A stretch of 64,000 nt of DNA from Oscillospiraceae bacterium (GTDB taxonomy: Bacteria > Bacillota > Clostridia > Oscillospirales > CAG-272), in NCBI GenBank assembly GCA_015064785.1, contig SVRM01000005.1, forward strand, positions 362 to 64,361, given 5' to 3'. The position numbers and the translations under genes were made by a program. Below are positions 1-42,499 of this stretch, piece after piece; position 1 is the stretch's first letter; each line of letters opens with the position of its first letter. A model generated the notes under the pieces. It worked only from the letters and a program-made list of their open reading frames with translations. It made no database searches and had not been told where the DNA came from.

Positions 1-665
1 TTTTCGAGGGTGGAATCGAGCAGCGGGATATCGCCGAAGTAGGTCTTGATTTCAGCCGCGGTTTCAATGCCGAGTGCACGGATGAGAACCGTTGCGGGAA
101 TCTTTCTGTTCTTATCGATACGGACAAACAAAATGTCATTTGCGTCCGTTTCGTATTCCAGCCATGCGCCGCGGTACGGAATGATCTGTGCCGTGTAGAT
201 GCGCTTGCCGGTCTTATCGAGCATGGTATCGAAATAGACACCGGGGGAACGAACGATCTGCGAAACAATGACACGTTCCGCACCATTGATGATAAAGGTA
301 CCGTTTTCGGTCATTAACGGGAAATCGCCCATAAAGATTTCCTGTTCCTTGACCTCACCGGTCAGACGGTTGGTCAGTCGGACCTTGACACGCAGAGGAG
401 CAGCGAAGTTGACATCGCGTTCCTTACATTCCTCCACCGGATACTTCGGTGTCGGATCGATCGAAAAATCGACGAATTCGATGATCAGGTTGCCCGAATA
501 GTCCGTAATCGGAGATACGTCGCGCAGAACCTCCATCAGACCTTCATCAATAAAGTTCTGATAAGACTTCTTCTGAACCTCGATAAGGTTCGGCATTTCG
601 AGCGCTTCGTAGATCTTCTGGAAACTCATGCGGACATTCTTGCCAAGCTGTCGGGGTTTGACCAT
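1..665 (-). CDS. rpoB: DNA-directed RNA polymerase subunit beta, N-terminal part (gene continues past the left edge)
   Basis: The minus-strand frame is open to the window edge, so it is absent from the ORF track. My translation from the ATG at 665 reads [53 protein letters not shown]...[34 protein letters not shown], a canonical RpoB N-terminus. An in-frame GTG at 671 is an alternative start. Confidence 0.93.
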
Positions 666-846
666 AGACACAATCACTCCATTCTAAAAAATTGTTCCGC
701 CGGATTGCGAGGAATATTTGTAAAATCAGTACAATTTCCACACAGCAAAAACGGAATCGGATGTGCAATAAAGAGATTTTGAGCAGAATGCAAAAATTTG
801 TGTTCTTTCTCAAAAAGCATAATACGCCAGTATAATGCAGTATAAT

Positions 847-875
847 ATTATAGCACAAACTCTCTTGATTGTCAA
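847..875 (-). promoter_or_regulatory. Candidate sigma-A promoter for rpoB
   Basis: On the minus strand: TTGACA (875-870), a 17-nt spacer, then TATAAT (852-847). This leaves a leader of roughly 175 nt before the rpoB ATG. Confidence 0.55.
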
Positions 876-978
876 GTACCATCCGAGAAATTTTTCCAAA
901 GTTTTTTATTCCGAAATTTCTGTTTTCCGACAGCTTCCGACAGGACAGTCACCGCACGGACCGCAGACCGCACAGAAC

Positions 979-1012
979 AAAAAAGCGGAGACCGCAGATG
1001 CCGTCATCTGCA
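979..1012 (-). terminator. Candidate intrinsic terminator of the upstream solute-binding lipoprotein gene
   Basis: The minus strand reads GCAGATG-ACGG-CATCTGC, then GCGG-TCT-CCGC, followed by a run of six T. It lies just after the stop at 1040. Confidence 0.45.
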
Positions 1013-1039
1013 GTCCCCACGGGAATGTATGCTGTTGGA

Positions 1040-2518
1040 TCAATCCTCGTATGCTTCATAAAGCGCATCGAGATCTTTCTGAATGGTCTTTTCCTGCTTT
1101 GCGAAATGGCTCGCAAGACCTTTTGCATTATTGTTGTAATATGCATAGCTTGTGAGATAGTCGGAAACGCCGGACAGATTGCCGTAGAATGCATCCGCAA
1201 AGTCAAAATATGCCGCCTGCTGAATGATGTCAAGCATTTCTGCGGTATCGCTGTCACGGGTATACTTGTCCTTGAGCGCGACGTTAAAATAAGTCGGGAT
1301 GATTTCGTTGTAGCCAATGCAGGACAACGCTTCCAGAACGAGCGACGACTGATCGGGGTCTGCCGCCGTGATCGGAACCGATGCTACGGTAAAGCGGCGC
1401 AGAATCGAGCAGACATAGTCCTTCTGTGCCTCATCGTACTTCGGATACGGAAGAATACCGAAATCTTCTTCCATATCACGCAGCCATTCGACACCCTTGA
1501 GGACAACGCCGACCATCGCGGAACGACCGACCTCCAGCTCATAGACAACGGCATTGTCACTGTGCGCAAAGCCCTCCGGTGCCTTTTCGCGGTCAAGGAA
1601 GTACGGACTGCGAATCAGCTCCCAGACCTTGTCATAAACCTCAATATGCCGTTCCTTGGGGAAATCAATGATGTAAGTACCGTCGTCCTGCTTTGCCATG
1701 ATCGCGGTCTGCGTGGAATAGGTCAGCGGGTTGATGGAGTTGCCGTAGGCCGTAAAGCCGCGCAAGTCATTTTCGTCGATCACACTGTCGCCGTTGAGAT
1801 CGGCAGAGAAGGATTCGACCAGCCCAAGGAATGCATCCAGCGTCCATTTTCCGTCGCGGACAAGCTGATACGGATATTCGATATCATAGTCGTTGAACAG
1901 TCCCGCATGGAACAAAATGACATTGGTTTCCGTCAGTGTTGTCAGTGCATAGTCACCCGATACGGAATACAGATGTCCGTTGATGGTGGCATTGTCATGA
2001 TAACCGTCCTTCCAGTACGGCTTGGAATAATCGATGTATTTTGCATCAGCCAGATCAAGATAAATGTTCTCCGTTGCCAAAGGAAGAACGATATTCGACT
2101 GTCCGGTGATGATATCAAAGGTGCTGTCGCCGGCAAGCACGGTATTGGTAATCAGACCCTTATATTCTGCCTGGGTTGCCCACAGTCCGGGGCGTCCCAT
2201 ATAATCGAGTGTCAGATTGAAACGTTCGCTGATGGCACGGTTGCGGTCATAAACAGCATCGTCCACAGGTTCGCCCGTCTGCTCGGTATCAAACTCGTAC
2301 GCGACCTCCTCACGGTACAGAATCGTCACGCTGTCGCCCTCATAATCCATTTCCGGAAGAGCATCGTTGACGCGGTTGTCATCCACCACCGTCTCCGCCG
2401 TCTTTTCGGTCACAGCCGCCGTGGTATCGGCAGTTGTATCACCGCCGCCGCACGATGCAGTCGCCGCCGCTGCTGCCAGAAGCAAAACCCATGCAAGAGC
2501 ACGTTTGGTTAATTTCAT
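1040..2518 (-). CDS. Extracellular solute-binding lipoprotein (ABC-type SBP family 1-like), orphan
   Basis: 492 aa. Signal peptide plus lipobox (LLLAAAAATASCGG). Size and sequence are typical of sugar-type SBPs. The C-terminal half is paralogous to the partial ORF at 63216-64000 (ILPYPK.DEAQ, ..NGD...D.ND.RGF). RBS AAAGGATGGA precedes the ATG. No permease or ATPase genes are adjacent. Confidence 0.85.
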   Translation of the reverse strand: MKLTKRALAWVLLLAAAAATASCGGGDTTADTTAAVTEKTAETVVDDNRVNDALPEMDYEGDSVTILYREEVAYEFDTEQTGEPVDDAVYDRNRAISERFNLTLDYMGRPGLWATQAEYKGLITNTVLAGDSTFDIITGQSNIVLPLATENIYLDLADAKYIDYSKPYWKDGYHDNATINGHLYSVSGDYALTTLTETNVILFHAGLFNDYDIEYPYQLVRDGKWTLDAFLGLVESFSADLNGDSVIDENDLRGFTAYGNSINPLTYSTQTAIMAKQDDGTYIIDFPKERHIEVYDKVWELIRSPYFLDREKAPEGFAHSDNAVVYELEVGRSAMVGVVLKGVEWLRDMEEDFGILPYPKYDEAQKDYVCSILRRFTVASVPITAADPDQSSLVLEALSCIGYNEIIPTYFNVALKDKYTRDSDTAEMLDIIQQAAYFDFADAFYGNLSGVSDYLTSYAYYNNNAKGLASHFAKQEKTIQKDLDALYEAYED

Positions 2519-2554
2519 AAATCATCCATCCTTTTCGTTTTTGTATTTATACAC

Positions 2555-2583
2555 ATTATATCACAGCTTCCATCATCTGTCAA
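2555..2583 (-). promoter_or_regulatory. Candidate sigma-A promoter of the SBP gene
   Basis: On the minus strand: TTGACA (2583-2578), a 17-nt spacer, then TATAAT (2560-2555). It lies about 35 nt upstream of the start codon. Confidence 0.6.
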
Positions 2584-2639
2584 TCATGAAATTTTTTCCG
2601 CTCATAGATCACCGGACAGCCGCAGATACTGATAAAAAA

Positions 2640-2861
2640 TAGGCAATTGCAAAATTGCCTACCTTCATCGCCCAAAGGGCGATATATAAACAAATTGCGT
2701 CGCTTGGGCGGGTTTCCCGCCCAAAAAGACTCCTTCAAAGCGACCAAAGGGATGCCACCCGAAGAAATGCTGTGCATTTCTTCAGAAGTTGCTGTGCAAC
2801 TTCGCGGTCTTTGCGTCAGACCGAGGAAACCGATTGCAAAATGCAATTTTGCAATCGATTA
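2640..2861 (+). mobile_element. MITE-like hairpin-module repeat, copy A (about 222 nt)
   Basis: It shares a 113-nt 5' block (one mismatch by eye) and a roughly 35-nt 3' block with the inverted copy at 36704-36875. It is flanked by a perfect 12-nt direct repeat, ACTGATAAAAAA (2628-2639 and 2862-2873). The 13-nt core ATTGCAAAATTGC occurs near both ends in inverted orientation. The body is a chain of perfect hairpins (AGGCAATT-GCAA-AATTGCCT, ATCGCCC-AAA-GGGCGAT, TTGGGCGGG-TTT-CCCGCCCAA, CGATTGCAAAAT-GCA-ATTTTGCAATCG). No coding capacity. Confidence 0.7.
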
Positions 2862-2889
2862 ACTGATAAAAAACGAAAGGAATTCCGCT

Positions 2890-4308
2890 ATGCCGCCCAC
2901 ACATCTGCCCGATACCTATGCCCAATCAAAGGAAGCACTCGATGCCCTGTTTTCCTATCCCGACAATTTCGGGATTGTCCGGCGTGAGCTGACCGTCGGC
3001 GGCCGGCCTGCCGTTCTGTACTATGCCGAGGCGCTGTGCGATACCGCTGTGACCGAACGTGTTCTCGCCTTCTGCAAGGACAGCACCGACACCGCGCCCA
3101 AAGAAACCGCCGAAGCCTTCTGCGCCCAATCCATTTCCTATGCCGAAACGGAGATTTCCGATGACCCGTGTATCCTTCATGCCGGATGCATGACCGGATG
3201 TCTGCTGCTTCTGCATTCCGCCTATCCGTCTCGCGGGCTTCTGATCAAAGCAAGAAACATCCCCTCCCGCAGTCTCGAGGAGCCGGAACACGACAAGGTT
3301 CTGCGCGGTGCCCATGTCGGCTTTGTCGAGGTTCTGCCGCGCAACTGTGCCATGATCCGACGCCAGCTGCCGACACCGTCGCTTGTTATGAAGAATATTC
3401 CCGTCGGATCCGCATCCCGGACCAATGTTGTGCTGTGTTATCTGCGCGGACGAGCAGATGAAGCGTATCTCTCGTATCTGGAAAAAAAGCTGTCGGAAAT
3501 CCATACCGACAATCTGTGCATGGGAACGCAGAGTCTGGCAGAATGCCTTGTCAAACGGCGCGTCTGGAATCCGTTTCCGCGCTTCCGTTACACCGAACGT
3601 CCCGATGCCGCCGCCGCGTCGCTGTGCGAGGGCAGTATCCTTGTTCTGGTCGACGGCGCACCGCAGGCCATGATTCTGCCGGTCTCGGTCTTTTCCTTTT
3701 TGCAGGAAACCAACGATTTTTATCTGGCACCCCTTACCGCCACGTATCTGCGGATCGTGCGCCTGCTCAGTTACCTGCTCTCGCTGTATCTGACACCGCT
3801 GTGGTATGCCATTGTCACAGATACACCGCCGCTGCCGGGCTGGCTGTCGTTCCTGTCACAGACAGAGGAGGCGCGCGTCCCCATCCTCGTTCAGTTTCTG
3901 CTGATCGAGGTCGCCGTCGATATGCTGAAGCTCGCTTCCATGAACACACCGAATGCACTGTCCAATTCCCTCTCCGTCATCGGCGGTCTGATTCTCGGCG
4001 AGTTTGCAATCGAGGTCGGATGGTTCATGCCCGAAACCATTCTGTATATGGCAATCGTCTCCATCACACATTTCACCCAGCACAATTATGAGCTGGGCTA
4101 CGCCTTCAAATACGTCCGCATCGCCATGCTCTGTCTGACTGCCCTCTGCGGCTGGTGGGGCATTCTGCTCGGAACCGCTCTGCTGGTCATTCTGCTGATC
4201 ACCGCACCGACACCGGAGGACAAACAGCGGTATTTCTATCCGCTCATTCCCTTCGACGGTCCGGCTCTGGCATCGCTGTTCATCCGCCGCAGAAAGGAGC
4301 TGCCATAG
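2890..4308 (+). CDS. Spore germination protein, GerA family (GerxA/SpoVAF-like A subunit)
   Basis: 472 aa. Soluble N-terminal domain followed by a polytopic C-terminus. GerA-family stretches are present (LVLVDGAPQAMILPVSVFSFLQETNDFYLAPLTATYLRIVRLL). RBS GAAAGGAA precedes the ATG. Confidence 0.85.
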   Translation: MPPTHLPDTYAQSKEALDALFSYPDNFGIVRRELTVGGRPAVLYYAEALCDTAVTERVLAFCKDSTDTAPKETAEAFCAQSISYAETEISDDPCILHAGCMTGCLLLLHSAYPSRGLLIKARNIPSRSLEEPEHDKVLRGAHVGFVEVLPRNCAMIRRQLPTPSLVMKNIPVGSASRTNVVLCYLRGRADEAYLSYLEKKLSEIHTDNLCMGTQSLAECLVKRRVWNPFPRFRYTERPDAAAASLCEGSILVLVDGAPQAMILPVSVFSFLQETNDFYLAPLTATYLRIVRLLSYLLSLYLTPLWYAIVTDTPPLPGWLSFLSQTEEARVPILVQFLLIEVAVDMLKLASMNTPNALSNSLSVIGGLILGEFAIEVGWFMPETILYMAIVSITHFTQHNYELGYAFKYVRIAMLCLTALCGWWGILLGTALLVILLITAPTPEDKQRYFYPLIPFDGPALASLFIRRRKELP

Positions 4309-4310
4309 TC

Positions 4311-5492
4311 TCACCGCACATCCCGGCAGATGCCCTGCATTGCACGGTAGAACCGCTCGGTATCGCGCACCGCCGATCCCCATCCGACACTGACACGCAC
4401 CGTTCCTTCTTCGCTCGTTCCGAATGCGCGGTGCGGAAGCGGTGTACAGTGAAAGCCCGCACGGACGCAAATGCCCTCCGCCGCAAGCAGCTCGGCACAC
4501 CGGGTACACGGCATGTTCCGGACATTGAATGACAGCACGCACCCCCGCGCAATGCCGCCTCGATAAACCGTCACACCGGGCAGACCGTCCAGCATTTCCA
4601 GCAGTCGGCGATACAGCATGTGGCAATTCTCCCGGATTTCACCGATGCCGACCCGTCCGATATCATCGATGCCCGCGCGCAGTCCGGCAATGGCAGGTAC
4701 GGACAGCGTTCCTGCCTCCAGCGCCTCCGGCAGAAAATCCGGCATTTCCGGTGACAGCGATGCCACGCCGTTTCCGCCCTGAATCCCGGCAGCAGGAATC
4801 TGTGCCTGTTCTCCGATCAGCAGAAGACCGCTTCCCTGCGGACCGAGCAATGCCTTGTGTCCTGCCGTACACAGATAATCGATGCCATCCCGCGACATGT
4901 CAATGTCATAAACACCGGCGCTCTGTGATGCATCGACCAGAAACGGAATACGCGCCGCACGGCACAGCGCACCGATTCCGCGGATCGGAAGTACCGCACC
5001 GCAGACATTCGATGCATGACATGCGCAGACCAGTGCCGTATCCCGCGTCAGACGCGCACGGATCCCGGAAACGATCTCCTCATCCGACAGCATCCCATCG
5101 CCGCCGCCGAACACCGGGTACACATCCACTGCCACCCCGGCAGACTGCTGCAAGCAGTACAGCGGGCGAATGACGGCGTTGTGTTCCAGCTCGGAAATCA
5201 AGACCCGCTTTCCCCCCAGCGCAAGTCCGTGCAGAACCGCATTGACGGCATATGTCGCATTCGGATAAAACAGCACATTTTCCGGTGCATCGGAGCCGAA
5301 GAATTCCGCCGCCGTACACCTTGCACCGTAAACCAGCGATGATGCGCGCATGGCCAGCATATGTCCGGCACGACCCGGATTTCCGCCCGCTTCCGTCATG
5401 GCACGCAGCATCGCCGCACCGACAGCGCGGGGCTTCGGCCAGCTCGTCGCCGCGTGATCCAGATAAACCAATTCCAAACCGAATACCTCCAT
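4311..5492 (-). CDS. Class V aminotransferase / cysteine desulfurase family protein
   Basis: 393 aa. N-terminal YLDHAATSWPKP and a PLP-lysine context (CTAGHKALLGPQGSGLL) typical of the NifS/CsdA/SufS-like fold. Confidence 0.85.
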   Translation of the reverse strand: MEVFGLELVYLDHAATSWPKPRAVGAAMLRAMTEAGGNPGRAGHMLAMRASSLVYGARCTAAEFFGSDAPENVLFYPNATYAVNAVLHGLALGGKRVLISELEHNAVIRPLYCLQQSAGVAVDVYPVFGGGDGMLSDEEIVSGIRARLTRDTALVCACHASNVCGAVLPIRGIGALCRAARIPFLVDASQSAGVYDIDMSRDGIDYLCTAGHKALLGPQGSGLLLIGEQAQIPAAGIQGGNGVASLSPEMPDFLPEALEAGTLSVPAIAGLRAGIDDIGRVGIGEIRENCHMLYRRLLEMLDGLPGVTVYRGGIARGCVLSFNVRNMPCTRCAELLAAEGICVRAGFHCTPLPHRAFGTSEEGTVRVSVGWGSAVRDTERFYRAMQGICRDVR

Positions 5493-5549
5493 CCTCGTTC
5501 CAAACGGGGCTGCTGCAAGTGAAAAACACGCAGCAACCCCCGATCATTC

Positions 5550-5792
5550 CTACAACATCGGCAGCTCATCCGTCAGGATTTCGGTATAGCGGACATGCGA
5601 TTTTTGCAGAATCTGCCGGACCGCGGGAACAGTATAACCGCCGCCGACAATTTCCAGCGCAAAGGCACAGCCGCCGCGGGACACACGCGGATCCAGCCGC
5701 ACCAGTTTTACCGGTACACCGTTTGCTCGCAGAACAGCCATGCCCTTTTCCCCGTAGGTGACGGAGCCGATGGCAATCCGAATCCTTGTCAT
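5550..5792 (-). CDS. DUF3343-like small protein (putative S/Se carrier-like)
   Basis: 80 aa. It resembles DUF3343 proteins from memory in size, in the RANGVPVKLV motif and in the GCAFALE motif. It lies directly upstream of, and co-oriented with, the aminotransferase. Confidence 0.55.
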   Translation of the reverse strand: MTRIRIAIGSVTYGEKGMAVLRANGVPVKLVRLDPRVSRGGCAFALEIVGGGYTVPAVRQILQKSHVRYTEILTDELPML

Positions 5793-5827
5793 ACGCCACT
5801 CTCAGAAAGAACAGAATTATTTACGGC

Positions 5828-5863
5828 AAAAAAAACGCCGCACTACAGTATATGCAGTGCGGC
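5828..5863 (-). terminator. Intrinsic terminator after the serine hydrolase gene
   Basis: On the minus strand an 8-bp stem (GCCGCACT/AGTGCGGC) is followed by a run of eight T. It lies 9 nt after the stop at 5872. Confidence 0.6.
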
Positions 5864-5871
5864 ACGTTTGG

Positions 5872-7308
5872 TCAGAAATTTTTCTTCTGATCTTCTATGG
5901 CATCATAGAAGGTTTTGTGCAGTTTTTCAATCTCAGAGACAAGCGAGCGGATGTATTCGTTCAGATCATCGTCGTTGACTGAGAAGTCAAAATTGGTCAT
6001 CACACAGACAGCAAACGGTGCATCGCCGTATACCAGCGCCATATCGTGATACGAATCGGCATCCCATCCGTATTTGTGCGCAACAGCATACGGATTGGAA
6101 ACCGCCTGCGTTATCAGGACCTGATGATTGGCGCTCTTCATCAGATTGATCAGAACACCGCCCTCGGTCGGATATTCCTTTGCAAAATCGTAAATCGCGG
6201 CAAGATAGAGGCACGCCTCGTCTGCGGTCATATTGTTGAAGGAGGTAAAGACCGACTTCACACCGAGCTGTCTCGATACCGTCCAGAAATAATCGTATCC
6301 GAATTCATTGCGCAGAATCCGGAATGCGGTGTTGTCGGAAACCTTGATCGCATATTCGATCAGCTCAAGCACGGTAAATTCCTTGCCCGCACCGGACAAA
6401 TCCATATCCTTGATTTTTCCGGAGCCTTTCTCCACCATCGATTCCGTCACGGTAATCTTGCGCCCAAGATCGTATTTGTCCCAGATTTCCTGCGTCAGTG
6501 TCTTTCCTTTCGCAGGATCGTTGGTCGGATTTGCCGCTTTGATTTCATTGTACTGCGCAATCTGATGCAGCAGCGTGTAAATATACGGCGCCTTGATCAG
6601 ACTTGCGGAAAAGAAAACAGTGTCGCCGTGATAGGAATACGCCGTCCCGCGCTCCATATCCCGGTAGGAAACGGCAATCACCGGGAATTTGTATCCCATC
6701 GCTTCATAATCAATTTCCTTTTCCAGCGCCGCGCCGTTTTCGTCCAGCGGAGAATTGGCCTGCGCCCGGTACAGAATCTCGGTATCCTCATCGAATTCCA
6801 CGTCCTCCAGCAGCATCAGCTCTCCCTCCGGATTGACAATGTACGGAGAATGCTCCATGCTTTGCTCCAGCGCGTCAATCACCGCAAGCTGTTCGTTCAG
6901 ATCAAAGGTATAGTTCAGCGATTCCGGATCTGCCGGCGTCAGATCGCCCGGATTGAACAGGCTGTCGAGGTCAATCGGCGCCTCCGGCAGACGCTCTGTT
7001 TCTGCCTCCGTCATCGCCTGCTTCAGATCATTCAGCTCATTGCGGAGTGCATCCGCCTGCTGTTCCAGATAGGCATTTTCGCGCCGCAGATCCGCAAGCT
7101 CCGAGGTATCGTATGTCACAGCCTCGGTCTGCGCATCGTCGGTCTGCTCCGTTTCACCGGACGGCAGCACCGGATCAGCGCCTGTCGGATGCGTATCTCT
7201 GCCCGACAGATACAGCGCCGCAAAACCGGCTGCCAGTAAAATAGACAGCGCCGTCACCGCAGCAAGCGTCGCAAAGATGATCTTCCATTCTTTTCTTAGT
7301 TCATTCAT
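5872..7308 (-). CDS. Membrane-anchored serine hydrolase, class A beta-lactamase-like fold
   Basis: 478 aa. N-terminal TM helix, a coiled-coil-like segment, then SxxK (SASLIK), SDN (VSDNTAF) and an HKYGW triad-like motif. Confidence 0.75.
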   Translation of the reverse strand: MNELRKEWKIIFATLAAVTALSILLAAGFAALYLSGRDTHPTGADPVLPSGETEQTDDAQTEAVTYDTSELADLRRENAYLEQQADALRNELNDLKQAMTEAETERLPEAPIDLDSLFNPGDLTPADPESLNYTFDLNEQLAVIDALEQSMEHSPYIVNPEGELMLLEDVEFDEDTEILYRAQANSPLDENGAALEKEIDYEAMGYKFPVIAVSYRDMERGTAYSYHGDTVFFSASLIKAPYIYTLLHQIAQYNEIKAANPTNDPAKGKTLTQEIWDKYDLGRKITVTESMVEKGSGKIKDMDLSGAGKEFTVLELIEYAIKVSDNTAFRILRNEFGYDYFWTVSRQLGVKSVFTSFNNMTADEACLYLAAIYDFAKEYPTEGGVLINLMKSANHQVLITQAVSNPYAVAHKYGWDADSYHDMALVYGDAPFAVCVMTNFDFSVNDDDLNEYIRSLVSEIEKLHKTFYDAIEDQKKNF

Positions 7309-7356: not shown

Positions 7357-7848
7357 TCAATATCCTCGTTTTCTGTGTCCGCGTCCCCGCTCAGCCGACC
7401 CGCGCAAAGCGCCGAGCCGCTCCTCACTCGCCACTCTGAACCGGCGCAGCATTTCCTCAAAATCTCCGTCGGCGGTGTGCGCCGGGGACTGTGTTCCCGC
7501 CGGCATATGTCTGCAATCCAACGTCGTTTTATGCTCACCCCGTACAGTACCGCCCCGGTACCGTGTCCCGGACAAGGCCGCGCGTTCGGCTGCCTGTGCC
7601 TCCTCTGACATTGCCTGTCTGCGGGAGAGGGCGATTCTGCCGCGTTCATCGACGGACAGAATCTTTGCCGTGCATGTGTCACCAACCGAGAGGACATCCG
7701 CAATGTCCTTCACATATCCTGCGGACACCTCGGAGATGTGAATCATCCCGCTGACCGCGCATCCGTCCGTTTCCAGTGAAACAAATGCGCCGTATGCGGC
7801 AATGCGCGTGACCTGACAAACACAGCATGTTCCGATTTCGATTGCCAT
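7357..7848 (-). CDS. yabR: S1 RNA-binding domain protein (YabR-like)
   Basis: 163 aa. The S1 fold signature (AYGAFVSL...GMIHISEVSAGYVKDIADVLSVGDTCTAKILSVDERGRIALS) is present. The position after divIC matches the Bacillus yabO-yabP-yabQ-divIC-yabR block. RBS AAGGAG. Confidence 0.8.
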   Translation of the reverse strand: MAIEIGTCCVCQVTRIAAYGAFVSLETDGCAVSGMIHISEVSAGYVKDIADVLSVGDTCTAKILSVDERGRIALSRRQAMSEEAQAAERAALSGTRYRGGTVRGEHKTTLDCRHMPAGTQSPAHTADGDFEEMLRRFRVASEERLGALRGSAERGRGHRKRGY

Positions 7849-7857
7849 CAGACTCCT

Positions 7858-8157
7858 TTAGTTGGACAGATCATTGTAAAAAATGATATCGTCCGGCATA
7901 CTGAAATTCAATTTGCTTTTTGCAATTTTCCGGATGTACGTATAATCAATCGGCGTGGCAAGCTCCCGGTTGAGCGCTTCGATCTGCGCCTGATAATACG
8001 CAATCTGTTCTTCGGTTACGGCAATTTCTTCCTTGTATTCCGTGATCTGACCATAGAGCTGAAAGATGGTGATGGCACAGAATCCGACGAAGACGAACAA
8101 TGCGACCTTCGTGAAGAAACTGGTTTTTTTCTTTGGCTGTTTCTGTTTCTTTGCCAT
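7858..8157 (-). CDS. divIC: Septum formation initiator DivIC/FtsB family
   Basis: Internal ATG (8157) of track ORF 7858-8430, preceded by RBS AAAGGAAC. The 99-aa product has a basic N-terminus, one TM helix (FFTKVALFVFVGFCAITIF) and a coiled coil (EEIAVTEEQIAYYQAQIEALNRELA). Confidence 0.8.
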   Translation of the reverse strand: MAKKQKQPKKKTSFFTKVALFVFVGFCAITIFQLYGQITEYKEEIAVTEEQIAYYQAQIEALNRELATPIDYTYIRKIAKSKLNFSMPDDIIFYNDLSN

Positions 8158-35620: not shown

Positions 35621-36667
35621 TCATCCCGGCAGAACCGTTTCCTGCTGCCGGACCACATTGCCCGTCAGACCGTCACAGAGTACCTCCCGCAGAATCGGTG
35701 TATGATCCTCCTGCTCCAGACGGTATCCGAGCAGCCACGACGGTCGGAGATACAGCGTTCCCGCGTCGTCCCACAGCATGTAGTACAAGCGCCGCATGGA
35801 AACCAGCTCACATCCGGCATCCGTATGCTGAAGTGCGTGGTCAAGACCGTCTGTTTCGCCTTCCATATCCAGCTGCTGATGGCGTTTCCGCTCCGAGAAC
35901 AGAATATTCAGCTGGTCCAGCTTTTTGATGCTGTACGTCTCATCCGGCAGAAACGGAACCCAGGTTCCCGCCAGCATCTGTACCGTACCGTTTGCAATCA
36001 GGACAAGCACTTCCGTATCGTAGATATCCGCGGCACTCCTGCCGGAACTGCGGTAGACGATTTCTTCCCGGAATACCGCCAGCCGCAGAGGCGCTTCTCC
36101 CGTGACGGCATAAACCTGCTCCAGCCGCGGCCGCAGACGCGCACCGGACGATTCTCCCGGTGTCAGCGCAGAAAGAAATTCCTCTGCCGCTGCTGCATCC
36201 TGCTCCGTTTCTGCCGTGTCCAGAGGCACAAACATCGGATTGTCACCGGAATATGCGGAAATCAATGCGGAAAGCCGTTCCTTATCCGCGCCGTCCCGCG
36301 TGTACATCAGATACAGATTATGATAGTATTCCACGCTGTCTCCGTTTTCAAACAGCAGGGATACACCGGAGGATGCCGGCAGCAGATACGCACTTGTCAC
36401 AGGCGAACCGATCAGCGCCGCAAAGACAGCACGATAGCCGCCGTCGGAAACCGGCACCCGGAAAACATGATCGCCGACAACTGCGGTTGGCACAACATCG
36501 GGATTCAGCGTGACATTTGCATCTGCAAGCAGCTGTGCCGCATCTTCAATCGCCGACCGGCTGATCATGTTCTCGCCGCGGTAATTGCGCCACAGCAGCA
36601 ATCCCAGCAGAAGATCTGCCAGACACAGACAAATGATCAGCAGCCATCGAACCCGGCTCCAGTTCAT
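35621..36667 (-). CDS. yycI: YycI-like regulatory protein of the WalRK system
   Basis: 348 aa. The N-terminus (MNWSRVRWLLIICLCLADLLLGLLLW) follows the YycI pattern (M.W.R. followed by a single TM helix), then an extracytoplasmic domain. It is last in the walR-walK-yycH-yycI order. RBS GGAAGGAGG. Confidence 0.6.
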   Translation of the reverse strand: MNWSRVRWLLIICLCLADLLLGLLLWRNYRGENMISRSAIEDAAQLLADANVTLNPDVVPTAVVGDHVFRVPVSDGGYRAVFAALIGSPVTSAYLLPASSGVSLLFENGDSVEYYHNLYLMYTRDGADKERLSALISAYSGDNPMFVPLDTAETEQDAAAAEEFLSALTPGESSGARLRPRLEQVYAVTGEAPLRLAVFREEIVYRSSGRSAADIYDTEVLVLIANGTVQMLAGTWVPFLPDETYSIKKLDQLNILFSERKRHQQLDMEGETDGLDHALQHTDAGCELVSMRRLYYMLWDDAGTLYLRPSWLLGYRLEQEDHTPILREVLCDGLTGNVVRQQETVLPG

Positions 36668-36703
36668 ATACCGACAACGCCTCCTTCCTGATTTTCTTTA
36701 TTT

Positions 36704-36875
36704 AATCGATTGCAAAATTGCATTTTGCAATCGGTTTCATCGGGCTGACGCAGCCCGATGGCTCCCTTTGGTCGCTTTGAAGGTGTCTTTTTGGGCGGGA
36801 AACCCGCCCAAGCGACGCAATTTGTTTATATATCGCCCTTTGGGCGATGAAGGTAGGCAATTTTGCAATTGCCTA
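36704..36875 (-). mobile_element. MITE-like hairpin-module repeat, copy B (about 172 nt), inverted relative to copy A
   Basis: It has the same 113-nt and roughly 35-nt terminal blocks as 2640-2861. It is flanked by a perfect 14-nt direct repeat, GATTTTCTTTATTT (36690-36703 and 36876-36889). The central module is replaced by a single hairpin (CATCGGGCTG-CGT-CAGCCCGATG). Confidence 0.7.
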
Positions 36876-36883
36876 GATTTTCT

Positions 36884-38539
36884 TTATTTCCCGGCAGACC
36901 GCCGCGGCAGAAGTCCGATCCAGTCCGCAGTATGAACGCCGTATGCATCAGCAGCATCACAGCACAGATATGCCATGGACAGAGGACCGATTCCCTGACC
37001 GTCCGTCTGTCCGCCGCCAGACGGCTGCTCCAGCGCCATTGCCTTCAGCGCCGTTGTCTGCGGCAGAAGATACTGCTCCTTCTCCGAAATTTCCGCATGG
37101 CACGGATACAGCTCCAGATGGGAAATGATGCCGCCGCCCGCCTTCAAAACCATTGCGCGCCGGATCTCACCGGTCTCGTCCAGCAGCGGAATCCCGCGGT
37201 AGGTGTATCCGTAGGTCAGCACAAGAGTCTCCTCCTCCGCGTCCGAAGCCATGCGCACATCGAGCAGTGAACAGACCAGCGCGTCACCGCCGAATGCGGA
37301 TTCTTCGGTTTCCAGAAGAGACAGCAAGCGGTCGGACGCACGCAGATATTCCGACAGCAGATAATCGCCGCCGATGCTGGCATATCCGAGATATTCCGCC
37401 AGATCAAGACCGCCCTCCTGCAATGCGTCATAGTAAAATGCACTGGCTGTTCCCGATACCGTCAGACGACCGGACGCATTCAGATAGATTCTGGTTCCGC
37501 TGCCGTCTGTATAATAGCTGTCCTTGTCGCGTTCCCGCATTCCGAGCAGTCCCAGCACGGCAGACAGCGTTTCCGCATCTCCGTACAATGCCGCCGCGGG
37601 ATCATACGGTGTCAGCATAATCTGCGGCATCCGATAGATGCCGTCAAGCGATGCCGCCGTTGCAGTCCCATACGGTATCAGTGTCCCTGTCTGTGCATCC
37701 GAGGTCAGCGTTTCCATGGAATCCAGATACAGATCCAGTACGCCGGTTTTCTCCTCTGCCATCTCCTGCGCATCGGTGCTGAACAGTGCAATTCCGGCGC
37801 TGTCATCCAGTCCCGTGTCTTCCGTCAGTTCCTCCGCCGGTGCCGAACTCCCCGGCATTTGTGCGGTCCCCGACATACAGTACAGCGTAACCGCACCACC
37901 GTCATCGCAGGTCAGCGCACAGACAGCATCGGTGTCATTCGACAGCGCCATCGGAAGCACGTCTGCCCACGGCCGCAGCGATTGCAGCGGGATCAGATAC
38001 AGCTCATGCAGATAAGAGGCTTCCCCGCCGGTACGTTCATCCAGAACCGCCGCCGTGGTTTCGCTGTCCTCCGCAGAATAGGTGTAAGCGCGGATCACCG
38101 ACACCGGCAGCGCTCCGTGATACCGGATATAGATACAGTCCTCCATCTGTGCACATGCCGCAAGCAGCTCGCCCCCGACCGCCGCATCCGCCGCATAGCC
38201 GACCGCACGCGAACCAAACAGATCACGCAGCAGCGGATACAGCCTCTCATACGGCTTGCCGAGTGCATCGGACGCATACAGAATCCGGAATGCACCGCCG
38301 CCGCGCCGGTATGCCAGCAGCTGCGGAGCGACACGCGCGGTATCCATTCCGGCAGCAAACATCGGCTGTGCACCGGAGGCATAGACCACCATACGGTCCG
38401 CCAGCGGCAGAGCTTCTTCCCTTGTGCCGTTCTGACCGATCATCAGAAGAACCAGCAGAACCAGCATAACCACAATCAGAATAAAAATCATCAGAGATTT
38501 GACCGCTTCCGCGGGAGAAAACACAGAATGCTGCTTCAT
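36884..38539 (-). CDS. yycH: YycH-like regulatory protein of the WalRK system
   Basis: 551 aa with a single N-terminal TM helix (LMIFILIVVMLVLLVLLMI) and a large extracytoplasmic domain. Its start overlaps the walK stop by 4 nt (ATGA), as in Bacillus walK-yycH. The call rests on position and topology. Confidence 0.55.
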   Translation of the reverse strand: MKQHSVFSPAEAVKSLMIFILIVVMLVLLVLLMIGQNGTREEALPLADRMVVYASGAQPMFAAGMDTARVAPQLLAYRRGGGAFRILYASDALGKPYERLYPLLRDLFGSRAVGYAADAAVGGELLAACAQMEDCIYIRYHGALPVSVIRAYTYSAEDSETTAAVLDERTGGEASYLHELYLIPLQSLRPWADVLPMALSNDTDAVCALTCDDGGAVTLYCMSGTAQMPGSSAPAEELTEDTGLDDSAGIALFSTDAQEMAEEKTGVLDLYLDSMETLTSDAQTGTLIPYGTATAASLDGIYRMPQIMLTPYDPAAALYGDAETLSAVLGLLGMRERDKDSYYTDGSGTRIYLNASGRLTVSGTASAFYYDALQEGGLDLAEYLGYASIGGDYLLSEYLRASDRLLSLLETEESAFGGDALVCSLLDVRMASDAEEETLVLTYGYTYRGIPLLDETGEIRRAMVLKAGGGIISHLELYPCHAEISEKEQYLLPQTTALKAMALEQPSGGGQTDGQGIGPLSMAYLCCDAADAYGVHTADWIGLLPRRSAGK

Positions 38540-41212: not shown

Positions 41213-42499
41213 TTACGGAAACACAACCGGCACGGTTGCTTCCGTGATGATCTGCGATACCACACCGGCATCACTCAGCCGCTGAAGCAGAACAGGCAGA
41301 ACCTGCGCCGCCGTGTCCGTACAGTGCATCCGGATCACCGGATAATAGCTGGTCAGCAGCGCCGCATCGATTTTGGCAAGCACCGCGTCGGCGTGATAGG
41401 ACAAATCATGATCCATTGCAGAAATATTCCAGTCCCACAAGACATAGCCGTGCTGTGCCAGCGTCTCCTTCTGCTGCTCCGACAAATACAGCCTTCCGGA
41501 ATGCGATCCCTCCGGCAGACGCACCAGACGGGTTTTCCGCCGTACCAGCGCATACAGCAGTTCATTTTCTTCCTCGAGCGCGGCAAGGAGATCCGCGGTG
41601 TCCCGCAGCGCATACTCGTCCGCGGTCATCCCGTGCAGACCGAGCGTATGCCCTTCTGCCAGAATGCGGAGAACCGTATCGGTATACTGCGTCAGCTGTT
41701 CCCCGGTGACAAAGAACACCGCATGTGCACCAAAGGTACGCAGCGTATCCAAAAGCACCGGCGTATGGGTATCCTCAATATCCTCAAACGTCAGATAAAC
41801 GGAGGATGCGCGATAGATGTCCGGTTCACGGACAGGCGGCTCCGTCACAGGCGGCTCTGTGACAGGCGGCTCCGTCACAGGCGGTTCTGTCACGACAGGT
41901 CCCGTCACAGGCGGCTCCGTCACCGGGATCGTCTGCACCGTCGTCTCCGGCTCCGTTTCTGTCACAGGCGGCGGCATATACACCGACAGAAGCTCCTCAA
42001 AGGTCTTCTTCTGCCCGCCGTCGCAGATACGGACCGTATTAAAATCCGCCGAAATTTCAAAGGTCCAGCCGAAATACGCACACATGTCACGCATCGGCAG
42101 ATACCGTTCTCTGGAGTACAGCATGGTATGGAGGAGAATCAGCGTACTGCGTTCCGTCTGTGCATAGGTGCTGTCATTTAAGTTGAAGGACAGGTACTTT
42201 TCCGTCACCGTGTCCTGAATGATAAAAACCGTATTGTTTTTTGCGGTACCGCGCCGGACACGCATCCCTTCGATGTCCTCATAGAAGGACAGCGGGATCC
42301 AGAAGTCCTTCATCGCACCGATGGTATAGCCCAGTGCCGGATAATAGTCATCCATGACCCACACCGTATCGTTATAGAACAGGGTCGGTACCTCCGGCTT
42401 CACCGCAAGCACCCGCGGCATGATCGCCGAACCGATCACAAGAACTGCGGCAGCCAGCCAGAGCGCCGCAAAGGAAATCCACTGTTTACATCTGCTCAC
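41213..42499 (-). CDS. Polysaccharide deacetylase (NodB-domain) protein with N-terminal anchor and a repeat linker
   Basis: 428 aa. TM anchor, an unknown domain, a (TEPPV)n linker, then NodB-like motifs (LTFEDI, GHTLGLHG). The GTG start overlaps the upstream stop (GTGA). Confidence 0.8.
   Translation of the reverse strand: MSRCKQWISFAALWLAAAVLVIGSAIMPRVLAVKPEVPTLFYNDTVWVMDDYYPALGYTIGAMKDFWIPLSFYEDIEGMRVRRGTAKNNTVFIIQDTVTEKYLSFNLNDSTYAQTERSTLILLHTMLYSRERYLPMRDMCAYFGWTFEISADFNTVRICDGGQKKTFEELLSVYMPPPVTETEPETTVQTIPVTEPPVTGPVVTEPPVTEPPVTEPPVTEPPVREPDIYRASSVYLTFEDIEDTHTPVLLDTLRTFGAHAVFFVTGEQLTQYTDTVLRILAEGHTLGLHGMTADEYALRDTADLLAALEEENELLYALVRRKTRLVRLPEGSHSGRLYLSEQQKETLAQHGYVLWDWNISAMDHDLSYHADAVLAKIDAALLTSYYPVIRMHCTDTAAQVLPVLLQRLSDAGVVSQIITEATVPVVFP
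41822..41926. repeat. In-frame 15-bp tandem repeat, about 7 units, encoding (TEPPV)n
   Basis: GGCGGCTCCGTCACA-type units are visible directly in the sequence. They translate on the minus strand to TEPPVTGPVVTEPPVTEPPVTEPPVTEPPV. Confidence 0.85.

Follow-up and report, generated by a model that had tools for sequence, protein, structure and literature searches.

What is the 222-nt non-coding segment that lies upstream of a GerA-family gene, and how did it come to stand directly in front of the ribosome-binding site? The gene (2890-4308, a PF03323 GerA match) is located near the left end of the window, by which we mean the whole stretch of 64,000 nucleotides of Oscillospiraceae DNA that was analysed. 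An earlier note on this DNA had proposed a mobile, non-autonomous MITE-like element with a true target-site duplication. The segment, called copy A in the following, was delimited by alignment and repeat search at 2640-2861 of the plus strand. A perfect 12-bp direct repeat, ACTGATAAAAAA, had been described on both sides of it, and both copies of this duplication were indeed read directly on the plus strand, the left one at 2628-2639 and the right one at 2862-2873. The Shine-Dalgarno-like sequence AAAGGAA of the GerA-family gene follows at 2876-2882 (plus strand). Its GGAA begins 6 nt past the duplication, and the ATG is located at 2890. On the other side of the element a promoter scan revealed a sigma-70-type consensus promoter (12/12, with TG extension) at 2555-2583 of the minus strand, which is predicted to serve the divergent gene of a 492-aa protein (1040-2518). 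This predicted promoter lies outside copy A, about 45-75 nt upstream of the insertion point in plus-strand direction, and is intact. The 109 nt upstream of copy A thus also hold the divergent gene's predicted promoter, and copy A appears to part the gerA ribosome-binding site from any promoter in these 109 nt.

Both ends of the element are formed by a terminal inverted repeat, an imperfect one of 19 bp with 16/19 matching positions. The 5' repeat, TAGGCAATTGCAAAATTGC, occupies 2640-2658 (plus strand) within the terminal hairpin H1, and the 3' repeat, the reverse complement of TAATCGATTGCAAAATTGC, was located by core search and alignment at 2843-2861 (minus strand). The 13-nt core ATTGCAAAATTGC, which had been noticed in inverted orientation near both ends, occurs exactly four times in the window, at 2646-2658 (+), 2843-2855 (-), 36709-36721 (+) and 36857-36869 (-). 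The chance expectation is 0.21 occurrences in the window, and none of 100 shuffles reached four.

Between these ends the body of the element is a chain of 5-7 perfect hairpin modules. All hairpins named here are given on the plus strand. H1 (2640-2661) has a 9-bp stem and a GCAA loop. It is followed by H2 (2667-2683; ATCGCCC-AAA-GGGCGAT), which was seen in the fold and is unchanged in seven copies, and by H3 (2704-2724; TTGGGCGGG-TTT-CCCGCCCAA), which was recognized in the fold and by repeat reading. The 3' terminal hairpin H7 (2831-2857) has a 12-bp stem and a GCA loop. Copy A folds with a predicted minimum free energy of -97.8 kcal/mol, and copy B, the second copy in the window, with -80.2 kcal/mol. 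The corresponding z values are -9.2 and -8.4, and 0/200 shuffles were equally stable. These values agree with the initial description of the element as made up almost entirely of stem-loops. Only spurious open reading frames overlap the element, and it has no coding capacity. Two ACCTTCA motifs are found at element positions 22-28 and about 92-98 (window 2661-2667 and about 2731-2737; CTCCTTC in copy A). They are complementary to the Shine-Dalgarno-like GAAGG.

Copy B had been placed at 36704-36875 in inverted orientation. It was recovered by alignment and repeat search with the best coordinates 36703-36875 (minus strand) and represents a 173-nt short form of the element. Two inverted repeat arms link the copies, 2634-2752 with 36763-36881 (97%) and 2812-2872 with 36692-36752 (90%). 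Copies A and B differ by one substitution over the first ~118 nt and by two differences over the last ~50 nt. Copy B occupies the spacer between two co-directional genes on the minus strand, 36884-38539 and 35621-36667. The gene-proximal copy of its duplication (AATAAAGAAAATC on the minus strand) was read directly at 36690-36702, and the distal copy at 36876-36888 (minus strand) holds the TAA stop codon of the upstream gene (36884-36886). The Shine-Dalgarno sequence AGGAAGGAGG of the 348-aa gene is located at 36680-36689 (minus strand). Its GGAG again begins 6 nt past the duplication, and the ATG stands at 36667. The duplication of copy B comprises 13 bp, or 14 if one ambiguous base is counted. 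Of the duplication lengths originally given, 12 bp therefore stands for copy A, and the 14 bp of copy B are 13 bp plus one ambiguous base.

The difference between the 222-nt and the 173-nt form consists of two extra hairpin modules, H4 (2761-2783) and H5 (2785-2803), which were defined by alignment (region 2761-2803, plus strand) and have TGT loops. Both are also present in three further loci (L069, L028 and L008). We considered independent mobility of these modules and rejected it: in the loci examined, the 49-nt H4/H5 modules occurred only within the element.

The window contains other repeats as well. Direct repeats at 20090-20369/22927-23226 and 22722-22936/25716-25930 (81-98% identity, ~2.8-3.0 kb spacing) mark tandem paralogous genes on the minus strand (787 aa and 839 aa) with duplicated upstream regions; the 839-aa protein shows weak solute-binding-protein domain matches. 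A 15-nt tandem repeat (ACAGGCGGCTCCGTC-like) at 41817-41951 was detected as seven overlapping 45-nt copies. It lies within a polysaccharide deacetylase gene (41213-42499, minus strand) and coincides with a weak extensin-like low-complexity match.

Comparison with related genomes provided the sites without the element that the earlier note had suggested looking for. On long contigs gerA orthologues were found whose GerA protein is 86-88% identical. Four of these orthologous loci (L084-L087) carry the same divergent gene pair, 137-139 nt apart versus 371 nt in the window. In the alignment they show one ATACTGAT(A/G)AAAAA, that is ACTGAT(A/G)AAAAA, followed by (C/A)GAAAGGAA...ATG. The element is absent, and the 12-bp sequence that flanks copy A on both sides is present as a single copy. 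The difference in spacer length, 234 nt, equals the 222-nt element plus one 12-bp repeat. As judged from this alignment, the orthologous gerA loci are a textbook empty site. At the copy-B locus, five orthologues (L160-L164) have a spacer of 38-48 nt versus 216 nt in the window; the 173-nt element plus the second 13-nt copy of the duplication account for 186 of these nucleotides. Here the orthologous spacers have diverged in sequence, and they show that the element is missing, without giving an empty site exact to the base. Because of this divergence the ambiguity between 13 and 14 bp stays. In contigs of the same species both insertions are always present.

The intergenic region of copy A is also conspicuous in another respect. 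To the left of the insertion site the window (1-2601) is 96.7% identical to L084 and L085, and to the right (2862-7236) only 77.6%. In the alignments this drop in identity looks like a sharp recombination or mosaic boundary. A further contig, L079 (JGI Ga0318466_10008340), encodes an identical GerA protein and aligns to the window only from position 1028 onward (99.6%). Its genes further upstream are GFO_IDH_MocA/Glyco_hydro_109, and the corresponding position in L084, to which the left end of the window (1-1027) aligns, holds rpoB. The window therefore stems from another strain or assembly than L079.

In order to find further members of the family, the terminal repeat was used to scan the GTDB species genomes (185,579 species, one genome each). 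A Clostridia MAG from roe-deer cecum, JAFTLK01, contained about 20 hit loci. Many of them are at contig ends, as is expected of a repeat that breaks assemblies. When contig ends were joined by shared flanks, at least 13 separate insertions were counted in this MAG. Both length forms occur, and the terminal inverted repeat is exact in all JAFTLK01 copies; the copy at L069:2956-3177 matches copy A at 98% identity. MAG JAZQWK01 contributed two diverged copies (92-94% identity), and one more diverged copy came from a metagenome contig (L135, JGI). In the other hits of the genome scan only the 19-mer matched, by chance. Most copies share more than 97% identity with one another, and the spread of the family is therefore recent. 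The additional copies that had been anticipated in relatives do exist, and together with the empty sites they bear out the proposal of a mobile, non-autonomous MITE-like element with a true target-site duplication. As far as sequence data allow, this reading of the element is proven.

At ten sites the duplication could be measured. Its length is 9 bp once, 11 bp five times, 12 bp three times and 13 bp once, and two of the duplications contain one mismatch. The duplicated sequences are unrelated and different at each copy. An identical orientation relative to the downstream gene had been reported for both copies in the window. This is correct for these two copies and does not extend to the family, where the orientation relative to the neighbouring gene is 8:4 in 12 insertions, which is not significant.

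Three individual loci deserve mention. At L061:7965-7967 (JAFTLK010000235.1) a 334-codon open reading frame, counted as a stop-to-stop frame, terminates at the TAG that makes up the element's initial three bases, so that a gene may have lost its original end to the insertion. The diverged copy at L020:131-303 (JAZQWK01) has no clear duplication. GGAG is located about 11-12 nt from both of its ends, and TTGATAGG lies across the left junction and is found again in the flank on the right; the copy may be an old or rearranged insertion. A Turicibacter sp. contig (L031/L104, Ga0131853_10007670; L031 about 7706-7860) was rejected as a member of the family, since it shares the terminal 19-mer only and its interior is unrelated and single-copy. 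The inverted-repeat structure there comprises ~150 nt, is bounded by TAGGCAATTGC...GCAATTGCCTA and contains internal GGGAAA(T)TTCCCTA repeats. It is probably unrelated to the element and resembles it by chance.

The diverged copies also allowed us to follow the stems. In H3 two different compensatory changes preserve the same G-C pair, as A-T in L020 and as T-A in L135, and this pair is broken in two copies. In H7 compensatory changes in L020 and L042 preserve three pairs, and L020 shows a G.U at another one. Overall, four stem pairs are kept by two-sided changes, one is G.U, and four cells of the comparison are broken. This is modest evidence that the hairpins may be maintained. Templated repair of palindromes could yield the same compensatory pattern.

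The choice of target was analysed at the ten reconstructed sites that have both flanks and a clear duplication. At each of them GGAG or GGAA starts at +6 (eight sites) or +7 (two sites) from one edge of the duplication. GGAR was never observed at +6/+7 from the other edge. The gap between the duplication edge and the motif is 5-6 nt, and either end of the element may face the motif, the 3' end in eight and the 5' end in four of 12 insertions. In the background, GGAR stands at +6/+7 on either side of 3-4% of 12-mers. The nominal P of ~1e-14 for this spacing is overstated, as the motif was picked after the sites had been inspected; even so, the effect is very large. A single fragmentary MAG supplies the majority of the target sites. 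What the first description called an A-rich target is, more specifically, an AT-rich stretch with its edge 5-6 nt from GGAG/GGAA. In a broader count, at least 12 of ~17 insertions have, in gene orientation, a Shine-Dalgarno sequence within 8 nt of the duplication and a start codon 13-22 nt from it. Among the intergenic AT-rich 12-mers of the window, 6-12% lie at most 8 nt upstream of a Shine-Dalgarno sequence with a start codon, which corresponds to a binomial P of about 1e-8 to 1e-11. The family lands directly in front of ribosome-binding sites.

How would a host gene be expressed across such an insertion? No promoter-like site was found by the promoter scan in or across either copy, and no sense-strand terminator was found in either copy. 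The only terminator-like structure, formed by the 5' hairpin and the T-rich duplication, is antisense to the genes. A terminator function was consequently rejected, the hairpin and T-run being on the antisense strand only. Outward hybrid promoters starting from the TTGCAA 7 nt from both tips were rejected as well, as the scan found no promoter-like site; to our reading, their -10 positions would be poor ones, and transcription would start within the Shine-Dalgarno sequence. The simplest reading is that transcripts from a host promoter would read through the element, which would thus add a long, highly structured leader or spacer to the RNA immediately 5' of the Shine-Dalgarno sequence. The element is presumably tolerated because it lacks a consensus promoter and a sense-strand terminator. 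The predicted accessibility of the Shine-Dalgarno sequence with and without the element (five cases) changed little and inconsistently; in the clearest case, copy A, it fell from 0.66 to 0.48 with the element. Given these small, inconsistent changes, masking of the Shine-Dalgarno sequence is not claimed. A 5-bp pairing of the internal CCUUC (first ACCTTCA motif) with the Shine-Dalgarno sequence of the copy-B gene was predicted in both the MFE and the centroid fold.

Two explanations for the position in front of ribosome-binding sites have to be weighed. We tentatively propose, at somewhat less than an even chance of being right, that the insertion machinery reads AAGGAG in double-stranded DNA as a one-sided anchor and cuts 5-6 nt away with a variable stagger of 9-13 bp. 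An AT-rich spacer followed by AAGGAG is the architecture of a ribosome-binding site, and a machinery anchored on one side by GGAG in the DNA would land just upstream of it, in 5' leaders and intercistronic spacers. From a symmetric DDE transpososome one would not ordinarily expect such a one-sided motif in the target.

Alternatively, the position could reflect selection instead of targeting. The element would then insert into any AT-rich DNA, and the only surviving insertions would be those in the neutral stretch between the promoter or transcript start and the Shine-Dalgarno sequence, or those favoured by mRNA-stabilising hairpins. We regard this account as unlikely. In its favour, insertions elsewhere in a 91% coding genome would usually be harmful, and under read-through both copies in the window leave promoter, Shine-Dalgarno sequence and upstream stop codon intact. 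However, the distance to GGAG is fixed within 1 nt in 10/10 sites, which is much tighter than neutrality needs, and positions further up the leaders or past terminators should be equally tolerable, yet they are rare. The predicted accessibility of the Shine-Dalgarno sequence, which shifts little and inconsistently when the element is present, also speaks against this account. A single locus is informative here. The two genes on either side of the motif in L011 share one strand, and the motif itself is on the other, non-coding strand, with no in-frame start of a long open reading frame behind it. The motif is no functional Shine-Dalgarno sequence there, and the missing gene start argues for DNA recognition rather than selection on translation. 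Selection after insertion may nevertheless contribute to the pattern of sites. It is very improbable that the internal anti-Shine-Dalgarno-like ACCTTCA motifs share in target choice or in masking of the Shine-Dalgarno sequence.

What kind of machinery would move the element? The element is very probably a non-autonomous DNA transposon (MITE) of a previously undescribed family from uncultured ruminant-gut Clostridia. It inserted by a staggered cut that duplicated 9-13 bp of an AT-rich target. A DDE transposase acting in trans, with cuts in the two target strands about one helical turn apart, would mobilise it. It is this stagger length from which we infer mobilisation in trans of the IS4 type. 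In the window no transposase was found among the large open reading frames tested, in agreement with the earlier note; these are core genes (dcw cluster, polC, dxr, aroA, alr, rpsB/tsf). A search for an autonomous partner with the same ends, as suggested in that note, was likewise negative in the genomes, metagenomes, viral contigs, plasmids and phages scanned. The 19-mer scans of IMG/VR, the GTDB species genomes and the JGI metagenome contigs revealed no autonomous element with these ends. A looser 15-mer scan of IMG/VR gave at least 120 loci, and the best 80 of 120 were all single matches, which we read as chance. The element gave no blastn match to PLSDB plasmids or INPHARED phages, and among L001-L159 no credible pair of loosely matching inverted ends 0.4-5 kb apart was detected. 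The absence of a partner may reflect the poor assembly of IS copies in MAGs. In summary, terminal inverted repeats, varied duplications, empty sites and a small, multi-copy, non-coding body were all found, and an autonomous partner was not.

The perfect hairpins at both tips (H1 and H7) and the palindromic modules of the body are features that an IS200/IS605-type PATE derivative or a REP/BIME-like element, moved by a Y1 (HUH) transposase, would also possess. IS200/IS605 and REP systems produce no target duplication and insert beside a fixed 4-5 nt sequence. The element, in contrast, has 9-13 bp duplications of varied sequence and true terminal inverted repeats, and it is found in both orientations, which makes a Y1 origin highly improbable.

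The element is almost certainly not a native structured RNA, such as a leader, a riboswitch or a small RNA gene, with the direct repeats as part of it or coincidental. The very stable predicted fold and the location in a 5' leader would fit such an RNA. However, the element is absent from otherwise conserved orthologous leaders, and its copies occur at unrelated loci beside unrelated genes in both orientations. A known RNA family had been named as a possible alternative. At gathering thresholds Rfam gave 0 matches in the whole window, and a permissive search of 2560-2930 remained without a meaningful hit, the best sub-threshold hits reaching 12-15 bits against thresholds of 48-100. The best E-values were 3.7-5.1 and belonged to eukaryotic or unrelated families. 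Spread via an RNA intermediate by target-primed reverse transcription can hardly be correct. In its favour one might quote that the duplications vary in length and that both window copies have A-rich targets. Against it stand the terminal inverted repeats and the lack of a 3' A-tail and of 5' truncations, and the targets are not consistently A-rich on the element strand (e.g., ATATTTCACTT, TTACTCAATTT).

A non-autonomous DNA transposon of this kind sets 170-220 nt of very stable hairpins before ribosome-binding sites, among them the site of a spore-germination receptor gene and that of an operon gene. It can thus change the length of leaders, the processing and stability of mRNA, or translational coupling in many genes at once. 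Among bacterial mobile elements MITEs have received the least study, and hardly any have been described from uncultured gut Clostridia. The present family has been active recently and breaks metagenome assemblies. If the fixed distance to GGAG is due to recognition by the insertion machinery, this would be a new kind of target selection by a DNA transposon. The family would then be the first transposon family homing to ribosome-binding sites, a counterpart to the promoter-homing TnGBS/ISLre2 elements, and could seed tools for the precise insertion of cargo upstream of translation starts.

Among known systems the IS4 family resembles the element in the length of the duplication. IS4-family transposases are DDE enzymes with a YREK motif. 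Duplications of about one helical turn are a hallmark of the family (PMC2266710), with 10-13 bp in the IS4 subgroup and 10-12 bp in IS231 (Table 1, De Palmenaer et al. 2008, PMC2266710). The initial statement that the duplications match no IS family is therefore not tenable, as 9-13 bp is in the IS4-family range (PMC2266710). Some members of the IS4 subgroup also show strong specificity in target arms outside the duplication (PMC2266710). The likeness comprises the duplication length, 9-13 bp with a mode of 11-12 here versus 10-13 or 10-12, and the ends of the element (TA...), which follow the 5'-NA pattern. The subgroup signature -AATR--------WTW is matched in part: the 3' end TAATCGATTGCAAAATTGC agrees with AAT and not with R or WTW, and the 5' end TAGGC agrees only with the A at position 2. 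The IS231 signature CAT is absent, as the ends of the element do not start with CA/CAT. The known target of IS231 is a motif different from that of the element.

By description, a similar MITE is Chunjie from Geobacter uraniireducens Rf4 (Chen et al. 2008), for which the passages considered give 178-235 bp, a ~21-bp terminal inverted repeat, a fold of about -98 to -130 kcal/mol and insertion into an operon without breaking it (PMC3184786). According to these passages the likeness extends to size (173-222 bp here), terminal repeat (19 bp), fold (-80 to -98 kcal/mol) and tolerance in operons. Chunjie differs in the same account by a fixed 9-bp duplication, by being A+T-rich itself and by its deltaproteobacterial host, and an SD-anchored target is not described for it there (PMC3184786).

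The Mutator-like DDE transposons TnGBS, ISLre2 and ISKra4 insert 15-17 bp upstream of the sigma-A -35 box, and those with near-symmetric inverted repeats do so in both orientations (PMC3942029). They are the single precedent on record for an anchor of this one-sided type. The element resembles them in logic only, by a one-sided fixed distance from a gene-expression signal and by both orientations. Its signal is different, a Shine-Dalgarno-like GGAG at 5-6 nt and not a promoter. A TnGBS/ISLre2-like promoter spacing of 15-17 bp was not found, the gap between duplication and start codon being only 13-22 nt.

BOX of Streptococcus pneumoniae (boxA-boxB(n)-boxC) is co-transcribed with adjacent genes, and its mobilisation is believed to occur in trans (PMC3184786). 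By description, it is likewise a modular MITE-like Firmicute repeat with a variable number of internal hairpin modules. We know of no 9-13 bp duplications of BOX and of no fixed distance from a Shine-Dalgarno sequence. Correia, ERIC and RUP elements are similar as small intergenic inverted-repeat MITEs that are co-transcribed and can affect mRNA. Their duplications are TA or very short. Correia elements carry functional promoters (PMC3184786), and the present element differs from them in that no promoter-like site was found in it. A one-sided, SD-anchored target with variable stagger is not described in the MITE and IS literature examined. The class to which the element belongs is ordinary; its targeting rule is not.
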